This document shows, piece by piece, positions 18,141-48,460 of a DNA stretch of 64,000 nucleotides. The notes beneath the pieces are model-generated. The model worked only from the letters and a program-made list of their open reading frames with translations, made no database searches and had not been told where the DNA came from. Made by a program: the position numbers and the translations under genes. The stretch comes from Pseudomonadota bacterium (GTDB lineage: Bacteria; Bdellovibrionota_C; UBA2361; OMII01), in assembly GCA_038134595.1 (NCBI GenBank), contig JAYPVM010000006.1, forward strand, positions 67,440 to 131,439. Reading direction: 5' to 3'. Positions within the stretch are counted from its first letter, which is position 1, and every line of letters starts with the position of its first letter.

Positions 18141-18181
18141 GCGTCGTACCTCTTATCCCTTGTATTGCGTTTTGCTCTCTA

Positions 18182-19507: not shown

Positions 19508-19775
19508 CTTACTTCCTCGTGATTATACTTTCGTGACTCATGGCTGCCAGCCTTGCTTTTGGAACCTATACTCTCGGCACATCGTGTGCGAAACAATCGA
19601 CACTACTCAAGTGTGGCAGAATATAGCCCAAGTCAAAGGGGAGATCAAAGAGGGATTGCAGTCCCAGAGAAGTCGCCCCTCCCCTTCATGCCTGGCAGTT
19701 TAAACGATAAAAACCTAGCATATATAAGCGATTTGTCTGCATGTTAGAGCATAGCATCAAGGTAGCACATAGAAA

Positions 19776-22100
19776 CTACCACCCAAGCACAGCAAGCGTC
19801 CTATCTCCAATGGCCTCCTGGTAAACACCCCCTTCGAGCCCACGCTGTTCATCTAATCGCTTAAAATCACCAGCATCCAATGAAAAGAGCGTAAGAGTTG
19901 GATTGTGAAAACCATAGGTACCAGCAGGCGCCTCAAACTGCCTAATAACAGGCACTTCGGAGAAGATCTCTCTAAACCGCTGTCGCAGTATCGCTGCACT
20001 TTCTGGCTGACTGAAATAACGGTCATAAAACAAGCTCGACAACACAAGGTATTGAGCTCCGGAACTTCTTAATCGACCGACGGACAGATCCTGTATGATC
20101 CTCGCCCTCGGAATGTGTTCGACATTAAAAAATTTACCGTGAAAGTTTGGACAATACGGCTTCCAGTCCATTAAGACTTTTGAATCGTGTGGCAAGTTAT
20201 GGATCATCCAAGTTGCTAATTGCTCTCGAGTATCATTTGTTACATCTCTTGCCAACAAAACGCTTCGGGCAAGTGGAAACGAACCAAGAACGAATATAAA
20301 AAGAACCGCACCATACCTTAGCAATACCGTTCTATCCCTTCTCAACTGCTCACAAACGACAGCTATACCGATCGCCATAAACGGCAAACAGGGCAGAATA
20401 TACCTCTCCGGCTGGGGAGCTGGTTTAGCCTTAACAAACTCTGCGGGAAGATAAAATAAAAGTGCCATGGAAACGACAATTAGGTCCTCTAGCTTCGACC
20501 TCCTGATCAGAAATCCCAAAGCAACACAACTGACAACCGTAATTGGCAGGGTCATTCCCGGTCGGATACTTCGCCACAAATGATAACACCAAAGCTGAGA
20601 CCACGCGGAAATAGTTACGGTATGACCGGTCTGCATGTGTCTTGATTCAGAATGAAAATCTTTCAAGAATTTAGCCGAATTCAGCACAGAGAACGGCGTA
20701 GTTGCTATAAAGCCCAACGGCGCTACACATACTGAGAAGATAGCAATAGCGAGCCACCGCTTGTCAGGTTTAATACTACGGGAGCTAATCCACGGCGCAG
20801 TAGCAGGTATACCCACCATTAGTAGTCCGGAATACTTAACTCCCGCTGATGCTCCCGCAAGAAGTCCTGCAACGACCAAAAGCCATCGTTTGTTTGTTTG
20901 TACAGCGACTAATGTTGTCCACAAACACATCAAGACGACAAATGTCAACAAAGCGTCTTCCTTCATATACCGACTACATGTGACATGTAGCGGAAACGTC
21001 GCGAGCAAGAGTGCTCCTATAGCTCCGACCATCCGAGAATATAACCGCGTCCCGATTAAATAGACTAAAATTACAGAGCCAATCCCAGCCGTTGCACTAA
21101 CGAGCCTCCCTGCCAAAAAGGCAGTTTCCCGAAAGCTACCTTCTACGCCCAACCAATGCAGAAGCACATTTACCGCATAGCTTGAATAAAGAAGTAGAGA
21201 GGGATGTAAAAAATACTGTGGATCAAGGGTATTTTGATCCACCATCCTCATAATGGCATTAACTTTTGGCACCTCATCTGGATGGAAATTTGCCGGCAAG
21301 CCGAATGTAATTCCATATAATCTGAGCGAGGCCGCCACTACCACCGCAAGTAGGAGCACACCCATAGAGACAATTCTTGAATCCTCATCTTCCTGCACCC
21401 TTCTCTGAAGGTATCCCCACATACCAACTAGCATCCCCAAGCTAAGAACCATCACAGGCGGAAATTTAGACGGGGCGACATCCGAGAAAAAAACGAGCCC
21501 GCCCGCCAATATCCCTATTGCGGTAAGGGCAACAAGGCTTGAGAGCCCTGATTTTTGCGCAACATACCGAGTGAAAAATCCAAGTCCAGCAAAAAACCCC
21601 GCAACCACTGCAATCAACCACCAACCAACAAGTGGAAGGCCTATCCACGAGTTAATAGAAACCGACGCTAGGTGTGTTCCCAATAATCTTGGCTTACTCT
21701 CTGTTACGGGCTGAAAGAATCGAAGAGACTTAATCTTTAGATGCAGAGGACTGCATCCAAATGGCAACGACAGCTTAATTGGTGCTGCCCCGCCGATTTC
21801 AAAGTTTTTCCAGGAGCCATCGCAAACAGAAATTGCAACCAGAGGGACCTCATTTGCTCCAGGCCGAATATGGCCGAAATGCAACGCGATACGATTCCCG
21901 ATCCCAGCAAAATTCGATACCGCAATACGAAGTTCCTCTCCTACCCATCCATCATGAGTAATGTCCCCCTTGCTTATTCCCTGCAAATCATGTCCAGAAA
22001 ACGAATGTTTCGAAAGTGTGCCAGTAGAGGCAATCGAAGCAAGCATGCTAACGACGAAAATAAGGGCGAGTCGACTCAAGCGACCCATTTTGACCTGCAT
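19776..22100 (-). CDS. GT-C superfamily glycosyltransferase (GT39/GT83, ArnT/PMT-like) with extra N- and C-terminal extracytoplasmic domains
   Basis: 774 aa polytopic protein. The first extracytoplasmic loop carries an acidic HPDE motif in a GT39/ArnT-like context (LYGITFGLPANFHPDEVP). More than 10 TM helices. A C-terminal domain of about 200 aa is soluble. Confidence 0.65.
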   Translation of the reverse strand: MQVKMGRLSRLALIFVVSMLASIASTGTLSKHSFSGHDLQGISKGDITHDGWVGEELRIAVSNFAGIGNRIALHFGHIRPGANEVPLVAISVCDGSWKNFEIGGAAPIKLSLPFGCSPLHLKIKSLRFFQPVTESKPRLLGTHLASVSINSWIGLPLVGWWLIAVVAGFFAGLGFFTRYVAQKSGLSSLVALTAIGILAGGLVFFSDVAPSKFPPVMVLSLGMLVGMWGYLQRRVQEDEDSRIVSMGVLLLAVVVAASLRLYGITFGLPANFHPDEVPKVNAIMRMVDQNTLDPQYFLHPSLLLYSSYAVNVLLHWLGVEGSFRETAFLAGRLVSATAGIGSVILVYLIGTRLYSRMVGAIGALLLATFPLHVTCSRYMKEDALLTFVVLMCLWTTLVAVQTNKRWLLVVAGLLAGASAGVKYSGLLMVGIPATAPWISSRSIKPDKRWLAIAIFSVCVAPLGFIATTPFSVLNSAKFLKDFHSESRHMQTGHTVTISAWSQLWCYHLWRSIRPGMTLPITVVSCVALGFLIRRSKLEDLIVVSMALLFYLPAEFVKAKPAPQPERYILPCLPFMAIGIAVVCEQLRRDRTVLLRYGAVLFIFVLGSFPLARSVLLARDVTNDTREQLATWMIHNLPHDSKVLMDWKPYCPNFHGKFFNVEHIPRARIIQDLSVGRLRSSGAQYLVLSSLFYDRYFSQPESAAILRQRFREIFSEVPVIRQFEAPAGTYGFHNPTLTLFSLDAGDFKRLDEQRGLEGGVYQEAIGDRTLAVLGW

Positions 22101-22126
22101 GAAAACCTCTCTCTCTCTTATTCTCT

Positions 22127-32797: not shown

Positions 32798-33040
32798 GCA
32801 TCATCACCGGAAGCCTCTCTGCCCCAGGTCATCTCAGCCCCCCCTTTTTTTCAGATTAGACTAATTCCCACACCCTTCCTAACCTGCAAAGTCTCATCAC
32901 CATCAGCCTAAACATTACAGCCAGGATTTGCCTAAAGCGTTCAAGAAAAGGTATACTCCCCGCCAACCTACATAAGGCTAATAACACGGGTAGAAGTGGC
33001 TTAAGCTTATACAAGCAAGTGGTGGATGGGGAGATATGGT

Positions 33041-33739
33041 ATGACAGAACAGAAATATCAAGAAGTAAGTGGTGGCCTTGTCAAGAAAACCAAGAGACGG
33101 ATTGTAGGCGTATTTATCGACGGAATCGGATTAGATAGGGCCACAAGGCGGTTAAATCGCAGAATTGATTTGGCGGCTTTAGTAAAAGGAGTCACCTCCG
33201 GATTACAACCAATTACAGCTCGATATTATACCGTGGTTCCTCACGAGGACGATTCACGACACAGGGCTTTCTTGGACGCTGTAGCCCGGGCTGGCCTAAA
33301 CGTAATCGTCAAAAGACTTCCCCCCAAAGGCATCACTCGCCAAGTCACCACCGATATCGAAATGTCCACCGATATCGTTGCTTATGCCTTAGGTCTGTCT
33401 TCATTTAACAAAGCCTTTGAGTATCTTCCAGCAGAAATCCAAGCTGTCAAATCGATGTCGATGACAAGTGGCAAGACAACCATCTCGCAAGATGATGTAT
33501 CGGATCAAAAACGACAATCGGGCCCCTTATTGCAAACCGATCCCCAAGACCGAAACGTAACCCGCTCCCTCATCGTAGTGTGTCCAACTCGTGAGCTATC
33601 GTATGCGATGAGTCTTGCAAAGGATCTCGGAGCCGATACAACAACTGCAGATTTTGGCACGTTTAATCGCGGAGATGTTCTTAAATCAGCGACAAAGTGG
33701 ATTGACCTTTCCGATTCAGAGACCATATGGAAAGATTAA
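33041..33739 (+). CDS. NYN-domain (LabA-like PIN-fold) putative RNA nuclease
   Basis: The core reads VFIDGIGLDRATRRL...IDLAALVKG...RYYTVV...FLDAVARAGLNVIVK...DIEMSTDIVAYAL, which matches NYN/LabA conserved acidic positions. GGGGAG SD sits before the ATG at 33041. An alternative ATG is at 33026. Confidence 0.7.
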   Translation: MTEQKYQEVSGGLVKKTKRRIVGVFIDGIGLDRATRRLNRRIDLAALVKGVTSGLQPITARYYTVVPHEDDSRHRAFLDAVARAGLNVIVKRLPPKGITRQVTTDIEMSTDIVAYALGLSSFNKAFEYLPAEIQAVKSMSMTSGKTTISQDDVSDQKRQSGPLLQTDPQDRNVTRSLIVVCPTRELSYAMSLAKDLGADTTTADFGTFNRGDVLKSATKWIDLSDSETIWKD

Positions 33740-33931
33740 ACTCTGGTAGCGACTAGACGCATAGGTTCTACGCGTCCACGCCGACAGTAACAACCGAAAA
33801 TCACAATGCTTTCAGTTATTTACCAAAACTCCCAGTAAACAACAAGGGCATGAAAGTTACGCCTTGACAATAACTTGCTCTTTGTATAGTTGCATCCTAA
33901 ACTGCGTCTTACGATTAATGTAGGATTGTCA

Positions 33932-35962
33932 ATGGTCTTTAACAGCTCGATTTCAGGACAAAGCTCCCACCGAGATGGTGGAAGGAGCAGCGATCGGCAA
34001 CAATCAAACGAGCGATCAATAAGCGACTTGCAGCTTAGTCGCCTCGCGTTCTTTACACCCGCTTCTGTAGTCGAACGTCAGCTAAAAATAGATTTTACAA
34101 CCACACTAGACGGCGACATAGCCCTTGATCGTCCAATTAGACTTTTTGCAAAAAATGCAACGGGCGTAACCGTGGCCCAGTACACTGTAGAGAACCTCCA
34201 GTTGCTCGACGAGAGTGTCAAAAAAACGCTATCGGATAAAATCAAAAGCTGCCGTAGATTAGAACTATCGGTCGAGACTCTTGCTCAAACCCTTCTAGGC
34301 CTTACGGAACACGACAATCGAATACAATGGAGCACAGAATCGCTCTATCCTGGAGCGAGGAAGCCTCTGCGGGAACTCCGTCCGTGCACTCCCTCTCTTG
34401 CCGAGTTTTTGCAAAATCCGACATGCCTCGAAAAAGCCTTCTATTCCATTCGTAAGACTGGGCATACAGAAGAGAAGCTTACAGCAGTAATGGATACAGA
34501 TGCTCAGACAATCACCTTTACTCTTTGCTCAGAAAACCTACCACACTGGAGCCCCTCTGAGCACAAAAATCAACGCGTCGTAGTTTCTTGTTCATCACTC
34601 GACGACAGATCTTCCGATACGAATCCGCAAGACGTTCTGGCTCCAATTGTATGGCAAGCCATGGAGGCGTTTTGGAATACCGGAGCAACAGGTCTCACTA
34701 GATATCTGTTTAGAGCCTCTAAAGACAACAAGGACACAAGCCCCCCCGGAATACAAGTGCGAGTACAGGACTTTTCTTTTTACGGAAAAAGCAGTTCAGG
34801 AGCCTATGTATCATTTGAGGGGTCATCTCAAGTCGCGCAAGTTACCCTAACACAAGAACCCCTGCTATCCCCTTTAAGTAAAAAACCAGCTTCTGGAAGT
34901 GGGCAATGGATTTTTGTAAATGATTCAAAAACGTCTCGTACTACCGCTAGCTCCGCTGAGAACACAATGTTAAGAGAAATCGGCACTGCGGTGACCAAGC
35001 TCATGCACTCACGAGGCGAGAGCTCCCTAGAAGAGGTATTTGCGACACTAACACTGGCGGCTCGCTCTGAGGTGTTCTTTCGACCAGACACTTCTGCCGT
35101 GGTAGAACCAGAGGTTTCCACGTATCTCGCAAAACTTGTAAATACGCGGGTATTACACTCCTGGGAAAGACCCTCTATTCCAGAGTTAATAAATTTTCTA
35201 GAGGGAACAAAAAGCCTCCAAATAATACTTACAGAAGACCCTGCTACACCCTCTCGCTTTCCATTTAACGCTCTCACTATTGATAAGTTCGTCGACGGCC
35301 GCACGCGACTCTCTCTCGTTAATAATCTCGGAGCACACTGCGAAGCTCAATTCTGCCGCCTCTCTTCAGATGATATGCGCCTCATCCTGAAAACCTTCGA
35401 TCAACAATTGGAAGAAGGAGTCCCCTCGTTGAGCAGAAGACGTTTGCAGTTGGTCTTGGAAACTTTGAAAAGCAGAAACACAGAAAACTGGGTGTTATTC
35501 TCCGGAACTTCATCAATCCCCGCAGCCGATGATACAGACGCGCACCAACTACTCGACGCCGCACTGCCAGTGATCAATCGTTACCTAGCTATGCGAACGA
35601 TTCGAGAAAAAACGAGCTATTCAGAGAAAAGCAATACAGCAGTTGTTTATCCCCAAAATGGCGTCATAGAGGTAAGCCTAGGAGAGGATTACCATCCCTA
35701 TCAATTAAGAGTGAGATTACAGCATAACTCGCTAACGCAAATAGAGATAATTCCCGACGAGTCCTCCTCCGGCCGGTTTAAAAAGCCGCGAAGGTATGCT
35801 TCTCGAAGTGGGATTACGTTAAACACTCCCGAATCAGATAGGTTTTTCGAATCTACACTCAAACATTTCTTTTCACTTGTCAGCAACACGACCGGGAGCC
35901 TTGAATTCGGCAATTCTGAGCTTCGTAGATTTCTAGACAGGCATTTTCAGGGCCCGCAGTGA
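33932..35962 (+). CDS. Large orphan hypothetical protein (677 aa)
   Basis: Long uninterrupted ORF with AGGA SD 6 nt before the ATG at 33932. The ORF track starts at TTG 33890. I recognise no motif. It is mostly hydrophilic and lies 190 nt downstream of the NYN gene. Confidence 0.6.
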   Translation: MVFNSSISGQSSHRDGGRSSDRQQSNERSISDLQLSRLAFFTPASVVERQLKIDFTTTLDGDIALDRPIRLFAKNATGVTVAQYTVENLQLLDESVKKTLSDKIKSCRRLELSVETLAQTLLGLTEHDNRIQWSTESLYPGARKPLRELRPCTPSLAEFLQNPTCLEKAFYSIRKTGHTEEKLTAVMDTDAQTITFTLCSENLPHWSPSEHKNQRVVVSCSSLDDRSSDTNPQDVLAPIVWQAMEAFWNTGATGLTRYLFRASKDNKDTSPPGIQVRVQDFSFYGKSSSGAYVSFEGSSQVAQVTLTQEPLLSPLSKKPASGSGQWIFVNDSKTSRTTASSAENTMLREIGTAVTKLMHSRGESSLEEVFATLTLAARSEVFFRPDTSAVVEPEVSTYLAKLVNTRVLHSWERPSIPELINFLEGTKSLQIILTEDPATPSRFPFNALTIDKFVDGRTRLSLVNNLGAHCEAQFCRLSSDDMRLILKTFDQQLEEGVPSLSRRRLQLVLETLKSRNTENWVLFSGTSSIPAADDTDAHQLLDAALPVINRYLAMRTIREKTSYSEKSNTAVVYPQNGVIEVSLGEDYHPYQLRVRLQHNSLTQIEIIPDESSSGRFKKPRRYASRSGITLNTPESDRFFESTLKHFFSLVSNTTGSLEFGNSELRRFLDRHFQGPQ

Positions 35963-36263: not shown

Positions 36264-37688
36264 ATGGCTATAAAACCAAAGCGTCGAGCTGAAACCCCTC
36301 TCCCTCCTTCTGAAAAACCGCAAAATGCTGGTCGAGTACCTCCTCAATCTATCGATGCAGAAGAGTCAGTGCTCGGAAGTATCCTCCTCGACAATCAGGC
36401 CATCAACATTTGCTTAGAAAGAATCCGAGCAGAAGACTTTTATAAGAGCAACCATCAGATCGTCTTTGAAGCCATGGCGAAGCTTTCGGACAAACGAGAG
36501 CCTATCGATATCATCACGCTAGGTCAGCAACTCCGTGCGATGGGGCAGCTAGAATCTGTCGGAGGTGCGCAGACTCTATCGTATCTTGCCTCATCGGTTC
36601 CTAATTCAGCGAACGTTCCATACTACGTCCGCGTAATAAAGGAAATGTCAATCCGACGGCGGCTCATAAACGAGTCTACTGATATCATCAATTCGGCTTT
36701 TGAGATGGAAGGCGAAATTGAAGACTTTCTCGATTCAACCGAGCAACGAATCCTAGGAGTTTCTGATTTCAGAGTAAATCAATCATTCCACCGAGTCGGC
36801 GATGTTGTCCAAGATTCCATTCGAATCGTTGAACAACTTTATGATCAAAAGGAGCCCGTTACAGGAGTGCCAAGTGGCTTGGTCAAACTAGACAAATTAA
36901 CAGCGGGCTTCCAGCCTTCAGATCTTGTCATTGTGGCAGCGAGACCCTCTATGGGTAAGACAGCACTTGTATTAGGATGGAGCCAATTTGTCGGAATCTA
37001 TAATCGAAAGCCTGTTGCATTCTTCTCATTGGAAATGTCCAAAGAGCAATTAGTCTTGAGAATGCTCTGCAGTGAAAGTCGAATTAACAATTCGAGCGTT
37101 CGAACGGGTCAATTATCAGAGCGCGACTTTGCCCGTATAGTTGAAGGAGCAAGTCGGATATCAGACGCAGACATATTTATTGACGATACTCCCGCGATCA
37201 CCATAACGGAGTTGCGCGCAAAAGCACGGAGACTACACCGAGATCACTCGTTAGGCTTGATTGTTGTTGACTATTTGCAGCTCTTAAGAAGCCCCGCCTA
37301 CAGCCATTCTCGAGAACAAGAGATTTCAGATATATCTCGTTCACTGAAAGCTCTCGCTAAGGAGCTAAATGTGCCCGTTGTAGCCCTTTCTCAGCTCAAT
37401 CGTTCGGTGGAATCTCGAACTGACAAACGACCTATGATGTCAGACCTCCGGGAGTCTGGAGCTATTGAGCAAGATGCGGACGTAATTATGTTTATCTATC
37501 GAGATGAGGTCTACAATAAGGAGTCACCAGACAAAGGTGTCGCTGAAATCATCATTTCCAAGCAACGGTCGGGTCCAACCGGCGCAATTCGCGTTGCATT
37601 CTCCGGTGAGTACACTCGTTTTGACAACCTAGAGGAAAGCGATTTTCCTTTATCCGCAGATGATGAGTTCAGTGGCGACGATTTTTAG
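36264..37688 (+). CDS. dnaB: Replicative DNA helicase DnaB
   Basis: 474 aa with the DnaB N-terminal domain (IDAEESVLGSILLDNQ), Walker A (ARPSMGKTALVLG), Walker B (LIVVDYLQLL) and RecA-fold C-terminus. Confidence 0.9.
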   Translation: MAIKPKRRAETPLPPSEKPQNAGRVPPQSIDAEESVLGSILLDNQAINICLERIRAEDFYKSNHQIVFEAMAKLSDKREPIDIITLGQQLRAMGQLESVGGAQTLSYLASSVPNSANVPYYVRVIKEMSIRRRLINESTDIINSAFEMEGEIEDFLDSTEQRILGVSDFRVNQSFHRVGDVVQDSIRIVEQLYDQKEPVTGVPSGLVKLDKLTAGFQPSDLVIVAARPSMGKTALVLGWSQFVGIYNRKPVAFFSLEMSKEQLVLRMLCSESRINNSSVRTGQLSERDFARIVEGASRISDADIFIDDTPAITITELRAKARRLHRDHSLGLIVVDYLQLLRSPAYSHSREQEISDISRSLKALAKELNVPVVALSQLNRSVESRTDKRPMMSDLRESGAIEQDADVIMFIYRDEVYNKESPDKGVAEIIISKQRSGPTGAIRVAFSGEYTRFDNLEESDFPLSADDEFSGDDF

Positions 37689-37794
37689 CTGCTAGGACGC
37701 AAAGCCTCCCCCATTAACAGCAACGTATCTTAACCGTACTGTGAAGGGGCATATATAGAGTAATGACGTAGATACACAGCCATAGATCCTGCGA

Positions 37795-38748
37795 TTAAGA
37801 GTGTGTGTTTGTGTCATACGCAACTGCAAGTAAGACATCCTGCACGTCCATCGGCCAGTGAAGAAGCTGATACGACGATTGCTCAACGATGTTCCTTGCA
37901 CTATCTTCCCAACGCTTTCGTTCTTCATCTCTTTGTGTGTTTTCTCCTGAGTGTTGCAAAACAATTAACTGCAGGGCGTCCAATTCTTTAAGGTATGTCG
38001 CTCCTTTCTTGCTTAAGCGTCTAGCAAGCTTCAGAGCCTTTTCTCCACTCTCGAAATCACCCTTTGCAATTGCTGTTAAACTCAAAACAAACTGGACCAT
38101 ACCACTATCTCTTACTGAGCGTTTCGCGGCAGCCTGTTGCAACAAAAAGTTATGTACTTGCTCAATCTGATTTAATGCGAGCAGCAAAATTCCATGATAA
38201 GCCACTTGCTCAACATCTTCTGACTGATGAAGCGCCTCGTATGAATAACACAACGCCTCTTGCTCCTCTCCGCTTACGAAAGCCAGATTGGCAATAGATC
38301 GCGCCAGTAGTGTTGCTTGCTCTCGATTATCAACCTCGTCAAATCGTCGATATGCTCCCTTCAACAAAGCTCGTGCCTGCACAAAATTACCCTCTTGTCT
38401 CTCGATATCTGCGAGGACAATCATGATATCCGGTCGTGGGCCTGACGACTTTCTTACACTCTCAATAACCTGCCTTGCTTCCAACAACCGACCCTGCTGG
38501 CTTAGGACCACAGCAAGGTTAAATTGCACGGCAGAGTTTGTTGAATCCAGCCAAGCAGCTTTCCGCAGTTGCCCCTCAGCATCCAAGAGTCGTCCCCGAC
38601 CAGCCGAAGCAACTGAATCAACAAGAAGGCCTGAAAGAATCAATTCTTCCGTCACAATCGACTTTGAGACACGATAGTCTCGTGAATGTGCACAGCCAAA
38701 ACAAATCGCAGTCATTACTGCTATTGCAAAATATCTAAACCGCGTCAT
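37795..38748 (-). CDS. TPR-repeat lipoprotein
   Basis: Lipobox (AICFGCAHS) followed by multiple TPR-like repeats. It is 12 nt downstream of, and co-directional with, the HAD::UbiA gene. Confidence 0.7.
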   Translation of the reverse strand: MTRFRYFAIAVMTAICFGCAHSRDYRVSKSIVTEELILSGLLVDSVASAGRGRLLDAEGQLRKAAWLDSTNSAVQFNLAVVLSQQGRLLEARQVIESVRKSSGPRPDIMIVLADIERQEGNFVQARALLKGAYRRFDEVDNREQATLLARSIANLAFVSGEEQEALCYSYEALHQSEDVEQVAYHGILLLALNQIEQVHNFLLQQAAAKRSVRDSGMVQFVLSLTAIAKGDFESGEKALKLARRLSKKGATYLKELDALQLIVLQHSGENTQRDEERKRWEDSARNIVEQSSYQLLHWPMDVQDVLLAVAYDTNTHS

Positions 38749-38760
38749 TTCAAATCACTT

Positions 38761-40233
38761 TTATAACCCTAAGCGCGCTGCGGTAAAGATTAGAAGCCCA
38801 AGAAGCCCCACGACATAAGTACCTACGTCTCGCAACGCAAATACAAGCGGATCATCATGCACCAGGCCCCGGCGCGCTAACAACCAAACACGACTAATCC
38901 AATACAACATGAGAGGACATGCCAACCAAATCATCTTCGGACTTTGATACAACGCCACTACCTCATTGCTACTGACATACAAAACTAGAACCAACGCTGC
39001 TATGTAACCACTCGCCGAACCGAATGAAGATACTTGTTCCATATCTCCTACCCAATAGCCCCTGCCCCAGGTCCTTTTTTCATTGCGCTGCTGAAGAGTC
39101 AGAAGTTCAGAAAAACGCTTAACGCAGGCAAGACTTAAGAAAAGAAACATCGACACACCGAGGAGCCATTGTGACAATGGTATTTCTGTAGCCACTCCGC
39201 CTCCGACGATTCGAATAGTATAAAGCATTGCCAATAAGATAATATCAACCAGAACTATAGCCTTTAAACGAAAAGAGTATGCAGTTGTAATCAGCAGATA
39301 GACCAACAATAATCCAACAAAGTGAGAGTGAATCTGCCAAGCAATACCGAACGCTGATACAAATAAAAGCGGAGCTAAACAAATTGCATATACTAACGGG
39401 AATCTACCAGCCGCACATGGGCGTTTCTTCTTTCTCGGATGCTGTCTATCTGACGCAAGATCAAGCAAATCGTTTACGATGTACACTCCCGATGCGCATA
39501 ACGAGAAAGCGACCGCGGCAAGCACGCTTCGTCCCACAACCATCGGTTCTAACCAACGATGTGCTAAAAACATCGGCGCAAATATCAAAAAGTTCTTCAA
39601 CCATTGATGGACTCTGAGGACTCGAAGGATAACGCTCCACGATGAGCGTACCACCTCAATCATTCGTGCACCTGGAAAAGCCTTTGAAATAGTCTCTGCA
39701 TATCCTATTGACGAGACCACCGCTGTTACCTCACAAGCCTCTCGCCACACTGCTATATCTGCCTCTGAATCACCAACATACTCCCAATCGTTTTGCCCAA
39801 GATGCTCCTTTATAGCCTCTACTTTCTTACTCCCTTTGCAGTTACGCGACACTGAAGAGCCAATCGAATGGGTCACAAAATTAAAACGGTCGGCAACAAG
39901 AGCAACTAATCGCTCATCAGATGCAGATGCAAGAATAATCCTCCGGCCCGATGCTGCTTGCGTTTCCAAGTATGAGACGACTCCCTCATGAACTGGCATC
40001 AAATCAACTCGCAATCCCTCCGCCCTGCCAGCCAATTCAGATTTTAGTGTAGCGCGTCCTCGAAATAGCCACCAAGGCAGTAGGAACAAAATCAGTGGAT
40101 TTCTCTTTAAAGCCAGTAAAAGGCTCTCATACAAGAGATCTGTTGCCAAAATTGTTCCATCAACATCAGCGACAACAACCGCAGGTCTACCACTCATCTT
40201 TTCCTGAACCATAGTCCTCTCTGAAAACGCCAT
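38761..40233 (-). CDS. HAD-phosphatase::UbiA-family fusion; C-terminal domain resembles decaprenyl-phosphate 5-phosphoribosyltransferase (Rv3806c-like DPPR synthase)
   Basis: N-terminal HAD motif I (VVVADVDGTILATD) in a domain of about 200 aa. The C-terminal 8-TM UbiA domain has the Asp-rich motif NDLLDLASDRQHPRKKKRP, which resembles the NDxxDxxxDRxHPxKxxRP signature of DPPR synthases. Start candidates are 40233, 40212 and 40197. The ORF extends to 40398. Confidence 0.75.
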   Translation of the reverse strand: MAFSERTMVQEKMSGRPAVVVADVDGTILATDLLYESLLLALKRNPLILFLLPWWLFRGRATLKSELAGRAEGLRVDLMPVHEGVVSYLETQAASGRRIILASASDERLVALVADRFNFVTHSIGSSVSRNCKGSKKVEAIKEHLGQNDWEYVGDSEADIAVWREACEVTAVVSSIGYAETISKAFPGARMIEVVRSSWSVILRVLRVHQWLKNFLIFAPMFLAHRWLEPMVVGRSVLAAVAFSLCASGVYIVNDLLDLASDRQHPRKKKRPCAAGRFPLVYAICLAPLLFVSAFGIAWQIHSHFVGLLLVYLLITTAYSFRLKAIVLVDIILLAMLYTIRIVGGGVATEIPLSQWLLGVSMFLFLSLACVKRFSELLTLQQRNEKRTWGRGYWVGDMEQVSSFGSASGYIAALVLVLYVSSNEVVALYQSPKMIWLACPLMLYWISRVWLLARRGLVHDDPLVFALRDVGTYVVGLLGLLIFTAARLGL

Positions 40234-40957
40234 TTCACGACTTTTTTCTGGTCGTGTGTATCGCACACAAATCAACGTCATCAAACGCAAGGCTTGAGTC
40301 GCGCAGTAGCCCTTCAAATCCAATACGCCTAAACACACACCGCAATCATATCTGTGGGGCACACCTACAATACTATCGAAGTAAGAGGATGAACACACCT
40401 CTTAATACGAAGAGCGGTAGAAACATCGGTCTGGCTAGCTCACAATCCACCGTAAATATTTAGAAACCCACTTAAGCAGCACCAAAAACCAATGAGATAC
40501 TATCATGTTACAGACCATTTTCACTAGCAGTCACACTAGAGAACGACTCAAAACATCGTCGCAAGCTAAAACAGTACACCAAAAGCATCTGCACAGTCTT
40601 CCCCAAGTCACGCCAAAATGAGTCGCAAGATCGAAGAAATACAACAGCGGTTACGCTAATTTTAACATCGCTCTGGGTCATATTTTGGCTAGTAGTAAGT
40701 GCTCCGATACGTTAAAATCAGGCGACAGGTTTCAACACTGTCGACAAGGCATGCCTTTGGATAGTAGAGCTAAAACTCATTTGAGATAATCAAGAGAGAG
40801 TTCTTACTCACTGTCAACGCTGGCTCAATTTTAGGCCGTAAGTTTTTGCCTCGGATCGCGCCATTAGATGGCAGAGTCCTCAAAAACAGGCTCGGTCCTT
40901 GAGGACAGGATCGTGATATGGCAGGTACAGGCGAGACTACCCGCATATTGAATTATC

Positions 40958-42307
40958 ATGGACGAACTGATTACAAGGATGGTACACAAGCATAACGGCA
41001 CTCAATTTTCATCGTGGGGCAAGTATCCAATACCAGTTGACCAATCGGCGGCTTTCCTTTGCTCGTCGTCATCGGAGCTTCCTCAAACAGATACTGGTCA
41101 ATTGCTCCTTCCTTATGGACTCGGCAGAAGCTACGGAGATAGCTGCATTAACAGTGGGCATACCGTTCTCCCCTGTTCGCGGCTAAACAACTTCCTTGCT
41201 TTCGATCCACACTCAGGAGTATTACGAGCTGAAGCTGGTGTCAGCTTAGCAGATATCTTGGAGGTCTTTGTGCCACGGGGATGGTTTCTACCCGTCTCTC
41301 CCGGAACTAAATTTGTCACACTCGGAGGAGCTGTGGCCAACGACATCCACGGCAAAAACCATCATGTTGCAGGAACCTTCGGCTGTCATGTGAGGCGATT
41401 TGAACTAATTAGATCCTCGGGAGAGCGATTTATATGCTCTCCGGAAGAGAACCCCGAACTCTTTCGAGCAACAATTGGTGGCATGGGGCTAACTGGATTG
41501 ATAACGTGGGTAGAGCTCACCCTCATCCCGATACATAGCCCCTACCTTGATACAGCTACCATCAAGTTTCGCAATCTCGATGAATTCTTTGACATCTCGG
41601 CCGAATCTGATTCCACGTATGAGTACAGCGTCTCGTGGGTCGATTGCACCTCTGAGGGCGCCAACCTCGGTCGCGGACTATTCATGGCTGGCAATTTTTC
41701 GGAGAAAACCAAGAGAAGACAGCCCCCCAAGCTCTCAATCCCCTTTCCCTGCGAAGCTCCCTCTTGGCTACTCAACTCTCTCTTCATGCGGTCTTTTAAC
41801 ACGCTCTACTACAACAAACAAAGAACACGCAAAGTCGAAGCTTTGACCCACTATGAGCCATTTTTCTATCCCCTTGATGCAATACTGAACTGGAACCGTA
41901 TGTATGGCAGGCGTGGTTTTTTTCAGTACCAATTCGTCATTCCATTCACAAATGACCGCCGTGTTATCAAAGACATCTTCACCCGCATTACAAAATCAAA
42001 GAGAGCATCTTTTTTAGCAGTGCTTAAAACATTTGGCGACATTCCATCCCCTGGCTTGCTTTCCTTTCCCAGAAAGGGCGTCACATTAGCTCTAGATTTT
42101 CCAAATCAAGGGAAGCCAACTCTTGAGCTCCTAACAGACCTTGATACTATCGTTAAGTCTGTGGGTGGATCTATTTATCCAGCTAAAGATGCCCGAATGA
42201 GCCCCGAAATGTTCAAGCTTTCGCATCCATACCTTGACGAATTCCTAAAATGGAAAGATCCTCAATTTTCATCCACTCTATGGAGACGTGTAATGGAGTC
42301 CGCATGA
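40958..42307 (+). CDS. dprE1: DprE1-like FAD-dependent decaprenylphosphoryl-beta-D-ribose 2'-oxidase
   Basis: FAD_binding_4 N-terminus. GRSYGD, PGT..VTLGGAVANDIHGKNHH.AGTFG.HV and GFFQYQFVIP align closely, by eye, with Mtb Rv3790. The position of the BTZ-target Cys387 (NICVDFP) reads TLALDFP here, so Cys becomes Ala. Confidence 0.85.
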   Translation: MDELITRMVHKHNGTQFSSWGKYPIPVDQSAAFLCSSSSELPQTDTGQLLLPYGLGRSYGDSCINSGHTVLPCSRLNNFLAFDPHSGVLRAEAGVSLADILEVFVPRGWFLPVSPGTKFVTLGGAVANDIHGKNHHVAGTFGCHVRRFELIRSSGERFICSPEENPELFRATIGGMGLTGLITWVELTLIPIHSPYLDTATIKFRNLDEFFDISAESDSTYEYSVSWVDCTSEGANLGRGLFMAGNFSEKTKRRQPPKLSIPFPCEAPSWLLNSLFMRSFNTLYYNKQRTRKVEALTHYEPFFYPLDAILNWNRMYGRRGFFQYQFVIPFTNDRRVIKDIFTRITKSKRASFLAVLKTFGDIPSPGLLSFPRKGVTLALDFPNQGKPTLELLTDLDTIVKSVGGSIYPAKDARMSPEMFKLSHPYLDEFLKWKDPQFSSTLWRRVMESA

Positions 42308-43041
42308 AGAGAATACTCGTAATAGGTGCCACATCAGGTATCGCCACGGCTGTCGCGCGACAGTATGCTCAAGACGGCGTCGCTTTATGCCTGTTAGGAA
42401 GAAATCACGAGAAACTCACAGCTCTAGCAACTGACCTCTCAGTGAGAGGCGCCTCGGAGGTGAGCACTTTTTGTTTTAATGCTTCGGACATCGAGCAACA
42501 CGCCCAAACATTAGAGAACGCCCAAATGCAATTTGGGCACTTTGACTACGCCCTAATAGCGCACGGGAACCTACCCGATCAAAAAGAATGTGAGCGCTCC
42601 TTTGAGCAAACTCATACAGAGCTTACAACAAATTTACTGAGCCCTATTGCATTGCTAACATGGCTGGGCAATTACTTTGAGGAACGCAAGGGTGGAACTA
42701 TAGCGGTCATCACATCGGTTGCTGGAGATCGCGGTCGTCAAAGCAACTATATCTATGGAACCGCCAAGGGTGCTCTTTCTCGATACCTACAGGGCCTAAG
42801 AAACAGATTAGCCCCCAGTGGGGTAGCAGTTGTTGATATCAAGCCCGGGTTTGTTGACACACCAATGACTCAGCATTTGAAAAAGGGGGCGCTTTTCGCC
42901 TCTCCAGAAAAAATAGCTGTGGGCATTAAGAAAGCCATAGAGCGCGGGACATCAGAGATTTACCTTCCTCGCTTCTGGTGGGTGATAATGTCCATAATTA
43001 AGACAATCCCAGAATGCATCTTCAAAAGACTAAAACTCTAA
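42304..43041 (+). CDS. dprE2: DprE2-like SDR (decaprenylphosphoryl-2-keto-ribose reductase)
   Basis: The start ATG at 42304 overlaps the dprE1 stop as ATGA. It has an SDR Rossmann motif (ILVIGATSGIATAV), a catalytic region (SVAGDRGRQSNYIYGTAKGAL) and a C-terminus (IMSIIKTIPECIFKRLKL) that resemble Rv3791. Confidence 0.8.
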   Translation: MKRILVIGATSGIATAVARQYAQDGVALCLLGRNHEKLTALATDLSVRGASEVSTFCFNASDIEQHAQTLENAQMQFGHFDYALIAHGNLPDQKECERSFEQTHTELTTNLLSPIALLTWLGNYFEERKGGTIAVITSVAGDRGRQSNYIYGTAKGALSRYLQGLRNRLAPSGVAVVDIKPGFVDTPMTQHLKKGALFASPEKIAVGIKKAIERGTSEIYLPRFWWVIMSIIKTIPECIFKRLKL

Positions 43042-43250
43042 GAGCCTGCTACTCAATCAGCATAACGCTAGGGCAACATGAGATCCGGGAGAGTTTTAAA
43101 GCAACTCGCAGCAGGTGTTTTTTGCACGAGGAAAACCAAGGCGCAACCGGCGCACCTAACTTCAACACCCACTTCTCCACTATGCGAAAAATTTGCCAGA
43201 ATTGGCCTTACGGCTCGTGGAAAAACATCCCAAGCCGTAAGAACAAGAGA

Positions 43251-43754
43251 TCACATCTCCAAGAGGAATTGAATTTGCTTTACGAGCAAGCTCTCCGCAC
43301 GAAACTTTTCACAGAACATATCCGCCCCACGTTCTAGTGCCACGAACTCTAGGTCATCTCCACAAGCAGTCAACATGATGACCGGAATTTCTCCACCGTC
43401 CCACTCGGTACCCTTACCTCTTACCGCCTTGAGAAATTCAAAGCCATCCATCTCGGGCATCTTGTAATCTGATACAATAACATCACACTGCTGTGCCTCC
43501 AATACTCCCAGTGCCTCCGTGGCAGATCCTGAGACCGTCACTTGATAACCTGCTCTCTCAACAATCCTCTTTAAAAATTGCAACTGATCTGGATCGTCAT
43601 CAACCACAAGAACATTATGGTCATGTGGAGTAGGTCGTCGCGAAATTTGATCCTCAGTTTCATTCCATGTAGCCATCATGAGAGCCTCCGTATCACTATA
43701 GTCATCTGGTATTTTGCAGCCTCGCTTCTCTCTAGAATCACGATTCCGACGCAT
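43251..43754 (-). CDS. Single-domain response regulator (CheY-like receiver)
   Basis: Receiver motifs: VLVVDDD, the phospho-acceptor context DVIVSDYKMPEMDG, and a conserved Lys region. No cognate kinase is present in the window. The start may be internal, at the MMATW codon 43679. Confidence 0.7.
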   Translation of the reverse strand: MRRNRDSREKRGCKIPDDYSDTEALMMATWNETEDQISRRPTPHDHNVLVVDDDPDQLQFLKRIVERAGYQVTVSGSATEALGVLEAQQCDVIVSDYKMPEMDGFEFLKAVRGKGTEWDGGEIPVIMLTACGDDLEFVALERGADMFCEKFRAESLLVKQIQFLLEM

Positions 43755-44222: not shown

Positions 44223-45110
44223 TCACCGGATAAGAACATCTAGTAGCGTGCAAAGAAAAAAAATGACGCTGGCCAATCCATTTCTTAAGAAAAATATCGG
44301 TTCAATTTGAGCATTTCGATCTCGCGCCACTGAGATGTGCTGTGTCGCTATTAAACCCGCAAAGAATACTATACCGGCCCAACACACAGCTCCCACATCA
44401 AACCAAACACCAGCTACAGACATAGCGATAACGGTACCAGCATGGAACACGCCGGCGCATAGTAAGGCTCGCCTGCGCCCCAAACGTGCCGGGACACTCT
44501 GTAATCCTCTTGCTCTATCAAACTCGATATCCTGCAGAGCATATATGATATCAAACCCTGCCACCCAAGTTAACACAGCTATCATGAGAGGCACCGGTCG
44601 CCAACTAAACTCACCAGCAATCGCTATCCAAACTCCACCCGGTGCCAATGCCAACGACAAGCCTAACACAGCGTGGCAAAGAATTGAGAAACGCTTCAAA
44701 TAGGAATATCCGAGTAGTATCATCAACACTGGGACAGAGAGATATCCACACAGCAAACTTAGAGCCGATGCAGATGCAATAAAAACAAGTGAAAAAAATA
44801 CGACGAGCATTCCGACCTCTACAGAGCTTACCGTTCCTTGAGGTATCTCTCGCATCGCTGTGCGAGGATTTTCGGCGTCAAGCTTTTGATCTACAAGCCG
44901 ATTAAACGCCATAGCGGCAAAGCGTGCAGAAACGACGCACATCACAATCAAAACAATCTGACCAACCGATATTGAAAATTCATACCATAAGAGGGCAACT
45001 ACCGATAGAGCAAACGGCATCGCAAAAATAGTGTGCGAAAACTTCACGAGCCTCCCCCACACCACTATGCGATCTCCGGTCTTGGTAAATACTGCTCCAC
45101 GCTTATCCAT
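44223..45110 (-). CDS. UbiA-family aromatic prenyltransferase (4-hydroxybenzoate polyprenyltransferase / MqnP-like)
   Basis: About 8 TM helices with the Asp-rich motif variant NRLVDQKLDAENPRT and a second motif near YALQDIEFD. The ORF track extends to 45173. The likely start is the MDKRG codon at 45110. Confidence 0.75.
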   Translation of the reverse strand: MDKRGAVFTKTGDRIVVWGRLVKFSHTIFAMPFALSVVALLWYEFSISVGQIVLIVMCVVSARFAAMAFNRLVDQKLDAENPRTAMREIPQGTVSSVEVGMLVVFFSLVFIASASALSLLCGYLSVPVLMILLGYSYLKRFSILCHAVLGLSLALAPGGVWIAIAGEFSWRPVPLMIAVLTWVAGFDIIYALQDIEFDRARGLQSVPARLGRRRALLCAGVFHAGTVIAMSVAGVWFDVGAVCWAGIVFFAGLIATQHISVARDRNAQIEPIFFLRNGLASVIFFLCTLLDVLIR

Positions 45111-45303
45111 AGGGGTCCCCAAGACGATCATACACATAAAGACAGCTGTTTCAATAGAACCCGTCTTTGTCATGTGCGGGCCGATAGTGAATGCCTAAAT
45201 GGATTTTGTAGCGTCTATTGCTGTTTATATGCCAAATCGGCCGAAAAAATACGTAACGATAGACTCAGATGCTGGATTTTTGTAACATATTGGTGGTGCA
45301 TCC

Positions 45304-46056
45304 ATGAGACTAAAGACGACGCCACAAAATATATCTGATCACGCTACTATGACTTCCCTAAACCACAGGCCACACAGCACTCAAGAGGTGCAAAGGATGT
45401 TCGACAGCATTGCTCCGACCTATGACATTCTAAACCTGATGTTAAGTGGCGGAAGTCACAGGAGGTGGGAATCAAAGCTCGTAGACTCACTACCAGAAGC
45501 GACCTCGGGAATATGCCTCGATATCTGTACAGGCACAGGCGCGTTAATACCCAGATTGGCACGAAGGTTTTCATCTGTTGTCGGTCTTGATGTTTCTCCA
45601 AATATGCTCTCTATCGCAAAACGAAAGTATGGCAGTATGCATAAGGTTTCTTTCATAGAAGCCGATGCCCAAAAGCTACCGTTTTCTGATAACTGCTTTG
45701 ACCGAATCACTGTTGCATACGGGGTTCGAAACTTACCGGACTATCGTACTGGCCTTAAAGAGATCAAACGAGTTCTTAAGCCAGGAGGTGTGGTGGGCAT
45801 TCTCGAGTTTGGGCAACCAAGCGTTCCGGTATGGCGTCAGGCGTTCAATCTCTATTCCAGAACACTTATGCCACTACTGGGTCGAATCGTCTCAGGAGAC
45901 TCCCATGCCTATAGATATCTTCCGAAAACAGCCGCCGCATTTCCATGCGGAAAAGCATTCGAAAATGATTTAATCGCCTGTGGCCTCTCTCCGACTAAAA
46001 CCCACTCATGTTTGGGAGGCATTGCATATATTTATGTGGCTAACAAAAGGACGTAG
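45304..46056 (+). CDS. ubiE: Demethylmenaquinone/ubiquinone C-methyltransferase UbiE/MenG
   Basis: UbiE-specific N-terminus (VQRMFDSIAPTYDILNLMLSGG) and a SAM motif (LDICTGTG). Confidence 0.85.
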   Translation: MRLKTTPQNISDHATMTSLNHRPHSTQEVQRMFDSIAPTYDILNLMLSGGSHRRWESKLVDSLPEATSGICLDICTGTGALIPRLARRFSSVVGLDVSPNMLSIAKRKYGSMHKVSFIEADAQKLPFSDNCFDRITVAYGVRNLPDYRTGLKEIKRVLKPGGVVGILEFGQPSVPVWRQAFNLYSRTLMPLLGRIVSGDSHAYRYLPKTAAAFPCGKAFENDLIACGLSPTKTHSCLGGIAYIYVANKRT

Positions 46057-46064
46057 AGAAAGAG

Positions 46065-46667
46065 ATGCACGCACATCAAAAACAACGGTGGATAGTTGGT
46101 ATAACCGGTGCGAGTGGAATTCGCTATGCGCAAAAACTTCTAGAAGTGCTTCCGAAGCTTGTCGACGAAGTCCATGTCGTGTTCTCCGAGGCTGCCCTTA
46201 GGGTTTTAAAGGACGAGGAAGGCATAATACTTCGCAGTGGAGCGGTATGCGCAAAGGAAGTTTGTGGACAAGATTACAGCAACATTTTCTTTTATAATCC
46301 CCGGGATATCGGAGCTAGAATCGCTTCCGGTACGATGATAGCACAAGGGATGGTTATCATTCCTTGTTCGATGGGAACACTCGGCGCCATTGCTCACGGA
46401 ATATCAAATCATTTAGTTCATCGAGCCGCTGACGTCACTCTAAAGGAAGGACGAAAACTTATCGTGGTTCCGCGTGAAGCCCCCCTTTCCACAATACATC
46501 TGAAGAATATGCTTATCCTCTCGGAGCTAGGCGCACGTATTATTCCGGCCATGCCAGGTTTTTACAACTCCCCGAAGTCAATCGATGATTTAGTCTCGCA
46601 TTTTATCATGAAGGTCCTTGACTCAATGGGAATTCACACCGACCTAGCAAAGCGCTGGTTAGAGTAG
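46065..46667 (+). CDS. ubiX: Flavin prenyltransferase UbiX (prenyl-FMN synthase; MqnL-like)
   Basis: 200 aa flavoprotein-fold with VGITGASG and CSMGTLGAIAHG motifs. Confidence 0.85.
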   Translation: MHAHQKQRWIVGITGASGIRYAQKLLEVLPKLVDEVHVVFSEAALRVLKDEEGIILRSGAVCAKEVCGQDYSNIFFYNPRDIGARIASGTMIAQGMVIIPCSMGTLGAIAHGISNHLVHRAADVTLKEGRKLIVVPREAPLSTIHLKNMLILSELGARIIPAMPGFYNSPKSIDDLVSHFIMKVLDSMGIHTDLAKRWLE

Positions 46668-47659: not shown

Positions 47660-48460
47660 ATGCAGCACAATAGACCTCGATTTCAATTTTATCTGCCGAT
47701 AATCGGCGTCCTGGCAGCAATTACCATCGCAACCTGCCCACTCAGAGCAGAGTCGAGAACAAAATCCGTCGGCACAGAAGTCTCGCAGCACTCCCTTCGT
47801 CTGAATGAACAAGGGGCGCAAGCTGTTAAGGAAAGAAGATTTAAAGATGCCGAACAGCTCTTTAAGAAATCTCTCGAGAGAGATGCATCCAATATAACAG
47901 CAGTCGTTAACCTAGCCGGCATGTATATTACAAACAAGAAAGAGACTCTTGCCATCAGCCTCTTATCTGAATACACAAAAAAATCACCCACTGATGCATA
48001 TCTTCAGGCGAGACTGGGAGATGCTTTCTTCGCTGCAAAAAAATCCTCTCAAGCTATCCGCGCCTACGAAAAAGCCCTTTCACTAGACCCCTCACTCGTA
48101 CCTCCTTTAGTACGACTTGCGTCCCTGTACACAATGAGCAACAAACTGGAACAAGCACGAGATATGTACATCCGCGCGGTCACTGCGAATCCTCAGGATG
48201 CACGGTCACTAAACAATCTAAGCAGCCTCTACCTCGGACTAGGAGATCCAAAAAGTGCGATAGCAACTGCAAAGAAGGCGCTACGAGTCTCGAGCACAAG
48301 CGAAACATATGTAACATTAGGCAATGCATACCAACGAGTTGGAGACCGTAGAAATGCACTACACTCATTCAAAAGAGCTCGCCAAATGGGTAGTAAAGAG
48401 CCTAAACTTACCGCCGTTATCCAAGAGCTCGAGGCTACCCAGAGCAACGCTCACTCTTGA
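47660..48460 (+). CDS. Secreted TPR-repeat protein
   Basis: Signal peptide (IIGVLAAITIATCPLRAES) followed by about 5 TPR repeats. Confidence 0.65.
   Translation: MQHNRPRFQFYLPIIGVLAAITIATCPLRAESRTKSVGTEVSQHSLRLNEQGAQAVKERRFKDAEQLFKKSLERDASNITAVVNLAGMYITNKKETLAISLLSEYTKKSPTDAYLQARLGDAFFAAKKSSQAIRAYEKALSLDPSLVPPLVRLASLYTMSNKLEQARDMYIRAVTANPQDARSLNNLSSLYLGLGDPKSAIATAKKALRVSSTSETYVTLGNAYQRVGDRRNALHSFKRARQMGSKEPKLTAVIQELEATQSNAHS

Follow-up and report, generated by a model that had tools for sequence, protein, structure and literature searches.

The window, by which we mean the whole stretch of 64,000 nucleotides analysed, carries a minus-strand gene that joins a HAD-type phosphatase domain to a UbiA-type membrane domain. 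It is followed by a TPR lipoprotein gene and faces a divergent pair of DprE1 and DprE2 homologues. The DNA comes from an uncultured bacterium related to Bdellovibrionota MAGs of fresh water. The features of the locus are as follows.

38761..40212, minus strand: gene of the predicted bifunctional HAD phosphatase / UbiA-type polyprenyl-phosphate 5-phosphoribosyltransferase (483 aa, stop codon included; best-supported start ATG 40212)
39643..40212, minus strand: N-terminal HAD phosphatase domain, C1-capped and HAD-IB-like, residues ~1-190 (Pfam, motifs, model)
38764..39639, minus strand: C-terminal UbiA-fold membrane domain, putative phosphoribosyltransferase, residues ~192-483 (motifs, PDB 8J8J, NCBIfam)
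40213..40398, minus strand: non-coding 5' region, read by the longest frame as a 62-residue Cys-rich extension (homologues, relative L011, periodicity)
40213..40957, no strand: divergent intergenic region of 745 bp, presumed site of both promoters
37795..38748, minus strand: TPR lipoprotein gene, co-directional and 12 nt after the stop codon of the fusion gene (Pfam TPR families)
40958..42307, plus strand: DprE1 homologue (putative polyprenyl-phosphoribose 2'-oxidase using FAD), transcribed away from the fusion gene
42304..43041, plus strand: DprE2 homologue (putative SDR 2'-keto reductase), 245 aa, sharing 4 nt (ATGA) between its start and the DprE1 stop

The longest open reading frame at the fusion gene (38761..40398, minus strand) gives 545 aa from a GTG and has in-frame methionine codons at 40281 (M40), 40233 (M56), 40212 (M63) and 40197 (M68). 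A sequence-only reading of this DNA had reported the frame with its DVDGT motif and four possible starts, and a TPR gene that follows after 12 nt, all of which were found again as described. It had also called the start ambiguous, with 55-67 Cys-rich residues in the longer versions. The ambiguity can be lifted, as ATG 40212 is backed by the starts of homologues, by the start of the profile match and by a close relative, and the Cys-rich residues turn out to be untranslated 5' sequence. All 20 aligned homologues start at the column of M63 and lack the extension, and the NCBIfam profile match begins at about M63. In the closest relative (L011, 95% identical), the frame of the extension is interrupted by stops and by indels of 4, 1 and 1 nt; mismatches against it across 40213..40398 are spread 11/11/11 over the codon positions, which means no codon periodicity, and identity falls to the intergenic level (77%, vs 81% in the intergenic DNA further upstream). 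Within the 483-aa gene the differences from the same relative are 28/9/77 by codon position, and the reading frame of the fusion gene is thus under purifying selection. A true start at GTG 40398 or at another upstream codon, by which the Cys-rich extension would become a metal-binding or regulatory peptide, could appeal to the frame being open from 40398, to an identical 545-aa call in the database (P0001) and to the NCBI-deposited version, which reads likewise, but against these comparisons it is extremely improbable. As judged from sequence, the start of the fusion protein is the ATG at 40212, giving 483 aa. The 545-aa frame misleads only by its extent, as the first 62 codons do not code for protein, although for the short segment 40213-40233 (M56-T62) a coding role is still conceivable.

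The divergent intergenic region of 745 bp compares with gaps, as called, of ~160-270 bp in relatives of 62-63% identity. No sigma-70 consensus-like site was detected in it, promoter and terminator counts stayed at the level of shuffled sequence, and no notable small ORFs lie within it. An Rfam scan of 37500-43500 with E up to 1 returned zero matches, and a repeat search of the whole window found none in or near the locus.

Both domains lie in one unbroken frame, with HAD (PF12710) at residues 75-216 (E 6.9e-10) and UbiA (PF01040) at residues 273-510 (E 5e-22) in the 545-aa numbering. The NCBIfam model NF006088 (PRK08238, 'UbiA family prenyltransferase'), which has a cutoff of 351 bits, is matched with 574 bits from 4 to 480 of its 482 positions, by ORF residues 65-542 of 545; the proposed union of HAD and UbiA in a single polypeptide is thereby borne out at full length. 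A frameshift, or two separate genes, is ruled out by the conservation of this single polypeptide of ~483 aa in thousands of homologues. A database search gave >3,500 matches, the best 120 of which are nearly all ~480-490 aa long with both domains, and the fusion was found in at least 571 GTDB species of many phyla as well as in 105 plasmids. It had been described as unusual; with a curated full-length model and at least 571 species genomes, the HAD::UbiA fusion is real but ordinary, a widespread architecture whose prototype is already characterised.

This prototype is ORF15 of Citrobacter youngae O1 (PRP-PPPRS; AWU66546.1), in which a HAD phosphoribose phosphatase and a UbiA-type polyprenyl-phosphate phosphoribosyltransferase make polyprenyl-P-ribofuranose from PRPP (Kelly et al., PNAS 2024, PMC11127046). 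The enzyme converts PRPP and farnesyl-P to farnesyl-P-Ribf, and its HAD mutant D18A releases the 5-phosphate intermediate while some dephosphorylated product remains (PMC11127046). This release speaks neither for nor against substrate channelling, which the sequence-only reading had suggested for the fused domains. The window protein has the same order, N-terminal HAD and then C-terminal UbiA, and, counted from M63, also has Asp at position 18 in a DxD motif; the residues tested in ORF15 (N247, D248, D251, D255, R366 and E369) carry identical numbers in it, a likeness by numbering.

The HAD motifs II-IV, which the sequence-only reading had left to a proper alignment, are all present. In the 483-aa numbering, motif I is D16-V-D18-G-T20, encoded at 40153-40167 directly after strand beta-1, motif II is S/T96, motif III K130 and motif IV G147-D148-x3-D152. 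None of the 30 sequences compared departs from D16, D18, G19, K130 and D152, and throughout the homologue alignment position 96 is Ser or Thr and position 148 Asp or Asn. The AF2 model of the fusion protein has a pLDDT of 89.6 and an order of strands and helices that fits HAD, and HAD-fold matches of its N-half are 3fvv, PSP and SerB. One might suppose that the HAD domain has degenerated, lost its catalysis and kept only a structural or regulatory use, and that another phosphatase acts, given the product remaining in ORF15 D18A and the Asn that replaces the first Asp of motif IV in some homologues. We consider this very unlikely, however, since the catalytic positions are kept among homologues only 43-81% identical to the query, the fold is modelled confidently, the 5-phosphate intermediate accumulates in ORF15 D18A, and the cassette holds no PAP2 (Rv3807c-like) gene. 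The HAD domain as the acting phosphatase is hence the preferred reading, with the reservation that its contribution to dephosphorylation may not be absolute, because ORF15 D18A kept some phosphatase-independent product. The idea of a non-orthologous replacement of Rv3807c, with the HAD domain as a functional analogue from an unrelated family, is correct but already published, as it was shown for C. youngae ORF15 (PMC11127046).

For the UbiA domain, N247-D248-x2-D251-x3-D255-R256 is encoded at 39445-39474 and R366-x2-E369 at 39106-39117, and the six residues N247, D248, D251, D255, R366 and E369 do not vary among 30 homologues. In a PDB sequence search the domain matches 8J8J, the M. tuberculosis DPPRS, with E 3.5e-32, the motifs NDxxDxxxDRxHPxKxxRP and KRFSEL being aligned; with Foldseek the C-half of the model matches 8J8J at E 1e-11, TM 0.82 and ~30% identity. 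The NCBIfam DPPRS models come next after the fusion model with 131-155 bits, under the cutoffs of 207-474 of the mycobacterial equivalogs NF008976, NF008977 and NF008978, and by these scores the UbiA part is a homologue, not an equivalog, of mycobacterial DPPRS. It would have a different meaning if the domain prenylated aromatic compounds for quinone biosynthesis and its fusion partner were a phosphatase of the phosphoserine type, as is suggested by the JGI automatic name of homologues ('4-hydroxybenzoate polyprenyltransferase/phosphoserine phosphatase') and by menaquinone-type genes 4-6 kb away (UbiA-family 44223-45173, UbiE 45304-46056, UbiX 46065-46667). These nearby quinone genes, however, have a UbiA of their own, and NCBIfam quinone and heme prenyltransferase models give the fusion protein <=42 bits, vs ~155 for DPPRS and 574 for the fusion model. 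Moreover, the best solved structure is that of the PRPP-using DPPRS, the NDxxDxxxDRxH motif matches DPPRS, and the genes kept beside the fusion are those of DprE1 and DprE2 instead of quinone genes. A quinone role has therefore next to no probability.

The divergent neighbours point in the same direction. The DprE1 homologue scores 358 bits with the NCBIfam DprE1 model, under its equivalog cutoff of 500, and among PDB entries it comes closest to M. smegmatis DprE1 (4AUT, E 7e-72); it has Ala in place of the Cys that is the target of benzothiazinones. The DprE2 homologue, called with 245 aa in relatives too, scores 178 bits with the NCBIfam DprE2 model (cutoff 250) and 316 bits with PRK07102, and its best PDB match is DprE2 (21gq_C, E 1e-25), ten orders of magnitude ahead of the next SDR. 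Here the pair is translationally coupled. Among 80 genome loci, from many phyla, most have both homologues linked to the fusion gene, and in most the DprE1 homologue adjoins it. With these homologues standing divergently at 40958-43041, polyprenyl-P-D-arabinofuranose is the implied end product. The pathway could instead end at polyprenyl-P-ribofuranose or another pentofuranose, the FAD and SDR genes serving another substrate: C. youngae O1 uses the ORF15 product directly as Ribf donor, both DprE homologues stay under their equivalog cutoffs, and some homologous loci, e.g. L009, have no adjacent DprE genes. We regard this as improbable in view of the strength of the two PDB matches, the linkage of the pair to the fusion across phyla together with its coupling here, and the need for a homologous pair in D-Araf pilin glycosylation of P. 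aeruginosa.

This analysis observed how the domains are arranged, their catalytic motifs and fold, where the gene starts and which neighbours are conserved with it, and from this we propose that the 483-aa HAD::UbiA enzyme very probably makes a lipid-linked ribose precursor, which the DprE1 and DprE2 homologues would convert to polyprenyl-P-D-arabinofuranose, to be flipped and used outside the cytoplasm; as to the reactions, the lipid that serves as carrier and the sugar finally made, we rely on homology to ORF15, to Rv3806c/DprE1/DprE2 and to the pilin-Araf genes of P. aeruginosa. The enzyme would sit in the inner membrane with two active sites, and its cytoplasmic N-terminal HAD domain would strip the 5'-phosphate to leave polyprenyl-P-beta-D-ribofuranose. 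The DprE1 homologue as oxidase and the DprE2 homologue as reductase would then epimerise C2' to give polyprenyl-P-D-arabinofuranose, and this donor, once flipped, would be used outside the cytoplasm by a putative transferase.

Such logic is found, with variation, in several known systems. M. tuberculosis Rv3806c (DPPRS) has a homologous UbiA domain with the shared Asp-rich motif and a similar DprE1/DprE2 pathway, but it is without a phosphatase domain, the phosphatase Rv3807c comes from an unrelated family, and the carrier is decaprenyl-P. The O-antigen cluster that contains ORF15 also encodes a MATE flippase and a GT136 GT-C, and the sugar which ORF15 provides is Ribf, or Xylf when an SDR epimerase takes part, whereas the partners in the window are DprE1, DprE2 and the TPR lipoprotein, with no flippase or GT-C nearby. 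DprE1/E2 homologues have been tied to Araf-containing glycans (PMC11127046). In P. aeruginosa PA7/Pa5196, the pilin D-Araf genes PsPA7_6245-6249 provide a DPPRS homologue with DprE1 and DprE2 for a lipid-linked D-Araf donor; in this Gram-negative pathway the synthase is without a fused HAD, the phosphatase is separate, and the cluster includes TfpW, a GT-C, besides a GtrA-like protein. The operons of Rhizobium leguminosarum and of Burkholderia plasmids (NF006088) likewise have the fusion gene followed by FAD oxidoreductase and SDR genes; they differ by encoding a member of the GtrA family, to which Rhizobium adds a large hypothetical protein, presumably a candidate GT-C. In the clade of the window the DprE pair is inverted and the TPR lipoprotein stands instead.

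The association of this lipoprotein with the fusion gene, already suspected from the 12-nt spacing, is supported by conserved synteny: in every related locus examined its gene directly follows the fusion gene or DprE2, so that it accompanies the cassette in Bdellovibrionota and in some Oligoflexia and Dadabacteria. It has a lipoprotein-type N-terminus with lipobox Cys19 invariant in 28 orthologues, and the conserved motif ARSI...EALCYS.EA together with H185 and P299. Pentofuranose glycosylation as a three-component system (donor synthase, flippase and GT-C) is incomplete in the window, and the missing parts may be elsewhere in the genome. No GtrA, SMR or MATE type flippase and no GT-C related to the ones in other clusters was found in the 64-kb window, and searching it with flippases, GT-C candidates and GT2 enzymes from Dyella, Trueperaceae, Paraburkholderia, Oligoflexia, Dadabacteria and Rhizobium gave nothing at E<0.1. 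The only GT-C in the window is an unlinked PMT_2 protein at 19776-22100. It is one of two large membrane proteins at 19776-24136, which had no match in PDB sequence searches; in Pfam the first matched PMT_2, and the second no more than DUF6798 below threshold. As the genes around these two proteins are those of UDP-glucose dehydrogenase and UDP-glucuronate decarboxylase-like enzymes, we did not count the two as parts of an Araf pathway.

What is mildly new is only that this TPR lipoprotein is a conserved partner in Bdellovibrionota and some relatives, whose cassettes have neither a flippase nor a GT-C gene next to them. As a tentative idea, which we think somewhat doubtful, the D-Araf cassette of Bdellovibrionota (and of some Oligoflexia and Dadabacteria) may have lost flippase and GT-C and gained a dedicated, fast-evolving TPR lipoprotein as a new fourth component of pentofuranose glycosylation, which would either act in the periplasm as an adaptor, bringing the acceptor to an unlinked GT-C, or be arabinosylated itself as the acceptor. 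If this were true, a largely predatory phylum would bear mycobacterial-type D-arabinofuranose glycoconjugates on its envelope.

These results leave the understanding of the pathway unchanged. For annotation, they correct an over-extended gene call from 545 aa to 483 aa and put a specific predicted function in place of the misleading names '4-hydroxybenzoate polyprenyltransferase/phosphoserine phosphatase' and 'UbiA family prenyltransferase'. They also indicate that the ORF15-type fused synthase is very widespread and usually coupled to DprE1 and DprE2. For the organisms themselves, they predict D-arabinofuranose-containing surface glycans in uncultured freshwater Bdellovibrionota, with the conserved TPR lipoprotein as a candidate partner to characterise.

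The longest open reading frame (ORF) of the fusion gene, its Met codons and the TPR lipoprotein gene behind it were all found as the sequence-only reading had described them. The frame contains Met codons at 40233, 40212 and 40197, and both Pfam domains share it without a break.

38761..40398, minus strand: longest ORF, 545 aa, GTG start
residues 75-216 of the 545-aa ORF, minus strand: HAD domain, PF12710
residues 273-510 of the 545-aa ORF, minus strand: UbiA domain, PF01040
37795..38748, minus strand: TPR lipoprotein gene, beginning 12 nt past the fusion gene stop
40958..42307, plus strand: DprE1 homologue, divergent from the fusion gene, best PDB match M. smegmatis DprE1 (E 7e-72)
42304..43041, plus strand: DprE2 homologue, overlapping the DprE1 homologue by 4 nt

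With the Met at 40212 (M63 of the ORF) counted as residue 1, conservation was assessed over 30 homologues sharing 43-81% identity with the query. D16, D18 and G19 of HAD motif I and K130 of motif III are invariant, position 96 of motif II is Ser or Thr in every homologue, and motif IV combines a nearly invariant G147 and an invariant D152 with either Asp or Asn at position 148; in the UbiA half, N247, D248, D251, D255, R256, R366 and E369 are invariant. Lack of motifs II-IV or a frameshift had been named beforehand as grounds for refutation; on both points the outcome favours a genuine single-polypeptide fusion. In sequence, the UbiA half aligns with M. tuberculosis DPPRS (PDB 8J8J; E 3.5e-32), and the aligned stretches include NDxxDxxxDRxHPxKxxRP and KR(F/Y)xEL. 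In a confident AlphaFold2 model (pLDDT 89.6, pTM 0.86) the C-terminal half superposes on 8J8J with TM 0.82, and the N-terminal half resembles capped HAD phosphatases, e.g. 3fvv and phosphoserine phosphatases.

Four starts had been considered possible, the longer ones adding 55-67 Cys-rich residues. The M63 column is the start of 20 of 20 aligned homologues, which favours 40212; M68 (40197) is unconserved, being Asn for example in the database homologue P0003 (81% identical). As to the extension from 40398, the related locus L011, whose synthase is 95% identical, has stops in the upstream frame 13-17 codons ahead of its first ATG and differs from the window by indels of 4, 1 and 1 nt within the extension, and a second locus, L003, has a stop 4 codons upstream of the Met. 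Differences between the window and L011 are distributed 28/9/77 over codon positions 1/2/3 in the coding part (92% identity) and 11/11/11 in 40234-40398 (77% identity, six gap columns), the latter being similar to intergenic DNA further upstream (81%). Taken together, these comparisons show that the Cys-rich extension is non-coding and that the gene starts at 40212, while 40233, giving seven more residues, may still be a candidate. The 545-aa database version P0001 is thus an over-extended call.

The fusion had also been regarded as unusual, which did not hold. A curated full-length NCBIfam model of 482 positions, NF006088/PRK08238 ('UbiA family prenyltransferase'), covers the protein from profile position 4 to 480; the score is 574 bits, where the cutoff is 351. 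Among 5.8 billion proteins searched there were over 3,500 matches, and almost all of the best 120 are 480-490 aa long with both Pfam domains. Scanning one genome per GTDB species detected relatives in at least 571 species; among the matches listed the closest are Bdellovibrionota (60-64% identity), and the species listed include Verrucomicrobiota, Trueperaceae, Planctomycetota, Binatia, Dadabacteria, Rhodanobacteraceae (Dyella, Luteibacter, Frateuria), Paraburkholderia and Polynucleobacter. Homologues occur on 105 plasmids, at full length on 81, and PGAP labels the annotated ones 'UbiA family prenyltransferase'.

The gene is therefore an ordinary representative of a curated family that is already known and has an experimentally characterised prototype. 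In Citrobacter youngae O1, ORF15 is a fusion with a HAD-family phosphoribose phosphatase (PRP) at its N-terminus, followed by a UbiA-type polyprenyl-phosphate 5-phosphoribosyltransferase (PPPRS), and membranes containing it convert PRPP and farnesyl-P to farnesyl-P-Ribf (Kelly et al., PNAS 2024, PMC11127046). In the HAD mutant D18A the 5-phosphate intermediate builds up; activity is almost lost in N247A, D248A and D255A, D251A is inactive in vitro with slight activity in vivo, and R366A and E369A are still active (PMC11127046). These six UbiA residues carry the same numbers in the window protein, which points to collinearity of the two proteins. According to the same authors Rv3807c is unrelated to HAD PRPs, so the earlier idea of a non-orthologous phosphatase replacement is correct and already published; they also report that Araf-adding systems are accompanied by DprE1/E2 homologues (PMC11127046).

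Both homologues are found here, DprE2 being the top PDB match of 42304..43041 by ten orders of magnitude. Comparison of 80 genome loci showed that the commonest order in many phyla is fusion gene, DprE1, DprE2, whereas the DprE pair is inverted in the window's clade. Complete systems are found on a Rhizobium leguminosarum plasmid (fusion gene, GtrA, FAD oxidoreductase, SDR, 518-aa hypothetical protein) and in Burkholderia stagnalis (fusion gene, FAD oxidoreductase, SDR, with GtrA further along). In view of the DprE homologues and this conserved context, the product of the pathway is most likely polyprenyl-P-D-Araf. At 41990-42100 (DprE1 residues about 375-385) the window has GVTLALDFP versus GWNVCVDFP in M. 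smegmatis. The Cys of the latter is the residue covalently modified by benzothiazinones in mycobacterial DprE1; with Ala in its place, natural insensitivity to BTZ-type inhibitors would be expected of the window homologue. The divergent intergenic region, 40213-40957, is 745 bp long and about as long in L011, versus only about 160-270 bp as called in 62-63%-identical relatives; no Rfam match, repeat or consensus promoter was found in it.

GT-C candidates (DUF2079 or PMT-like) adjoin the operon in other taxa. Within the 64-kb window, no homologue was found of the flippases, GT-Cs and GT2s that accompany the fusion gene elsewhere. Two large membrane proteins lie 15 kb from the cassette.

19776..22100, minus strand: PMT_2-type GT-C (Pfam), 774 aa
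22127..24136, minus strand: polytopic membrane protein, 669 aa, only a below-threshold DUF6798 match
within 44223-46667, minus strand: separate UbiA-family prenyltransferase
within 44223-46667, plus strand: UbiE-type methyltransferase and UbiX-type flavin prenyltransferase

No PDB sequence relatives of the two membrane proteins and no link between them and the cassette were found. Together with a UDP-glucose 6-dehydrogenase and a UDP-glucuronate decarboxylase-like SDR they form an apparent operon (17190-24136, minus strand), a second envelope-glycosylation module using lipid-linked sugars. The region 44223-46667 looks like a menaquinone-type quinone biosynthesis cluster, near whose counterpart L003 has a CofH-like radical-SAM gene; its UbiA gene probably explains why the fusion gene was misnamed as a hydroxybenzoate prenyltransferase. 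Elsewhere, a 237-aa NYN-domain protein and a 690-aa protein without Pfam match lie upstream of DnaB (33026-35962, plus strand); the NYN gene adjoins DnaB throughout the Bdellovibrionota loci, and the 690-aa protein is 74% identical in L011, with unannotated genes of 659-682 aa at its position in distant relatives. Another TPR protein, which is unrelated and carries a signal peptide (47660-48460, plus strand; 266 aa, strong TPR_1 and TPR_2 matches), and a small SirB-family membrane protein (48645-49007, plus strand) are both kept in L011.

More distant loci from Bdellovibrionota, Oligoflexia and Dadabacteria (L005, L009, L051 and L077) encode a large GT2 protein (about 640-845 aa) upstream of the fusion gene; in L005 and L009 its GT2 domain is double. 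One or two small GT2 genes also precede the cassette there, and the arrangement suggests an ancestral polysaccharide locus since lost or relocated in the window's clade. A TPR-repeat lipoprotein of about 320 aa directly follows the fusion gene or DprE2 in every Bdellovibrionota locus examined as well as in the Oligoflexia and Dadabacteria loci, and two further homologues whose contigs were looked up both directly follow a HAD-UbiA gene. Across its orthologues the lipobox Cys is invariant, and they have in common the family-specific motif ARSIxxxxFxxGxExEALCYSxEA, H185 and P299. Only 15 database matches were found, and identity to L011 is 78% for the lipoprotein versus 95% for the synthase, which points to a quickly evolving family. 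Given this conserved placement, it is reasonable to consider the lipoprotein a candidate periplasmic partner or acceptor. What interest remains lies in part in this conserved lipoprotein, and in part in the D-Araf glycans predicted for Bdellovibrionota.
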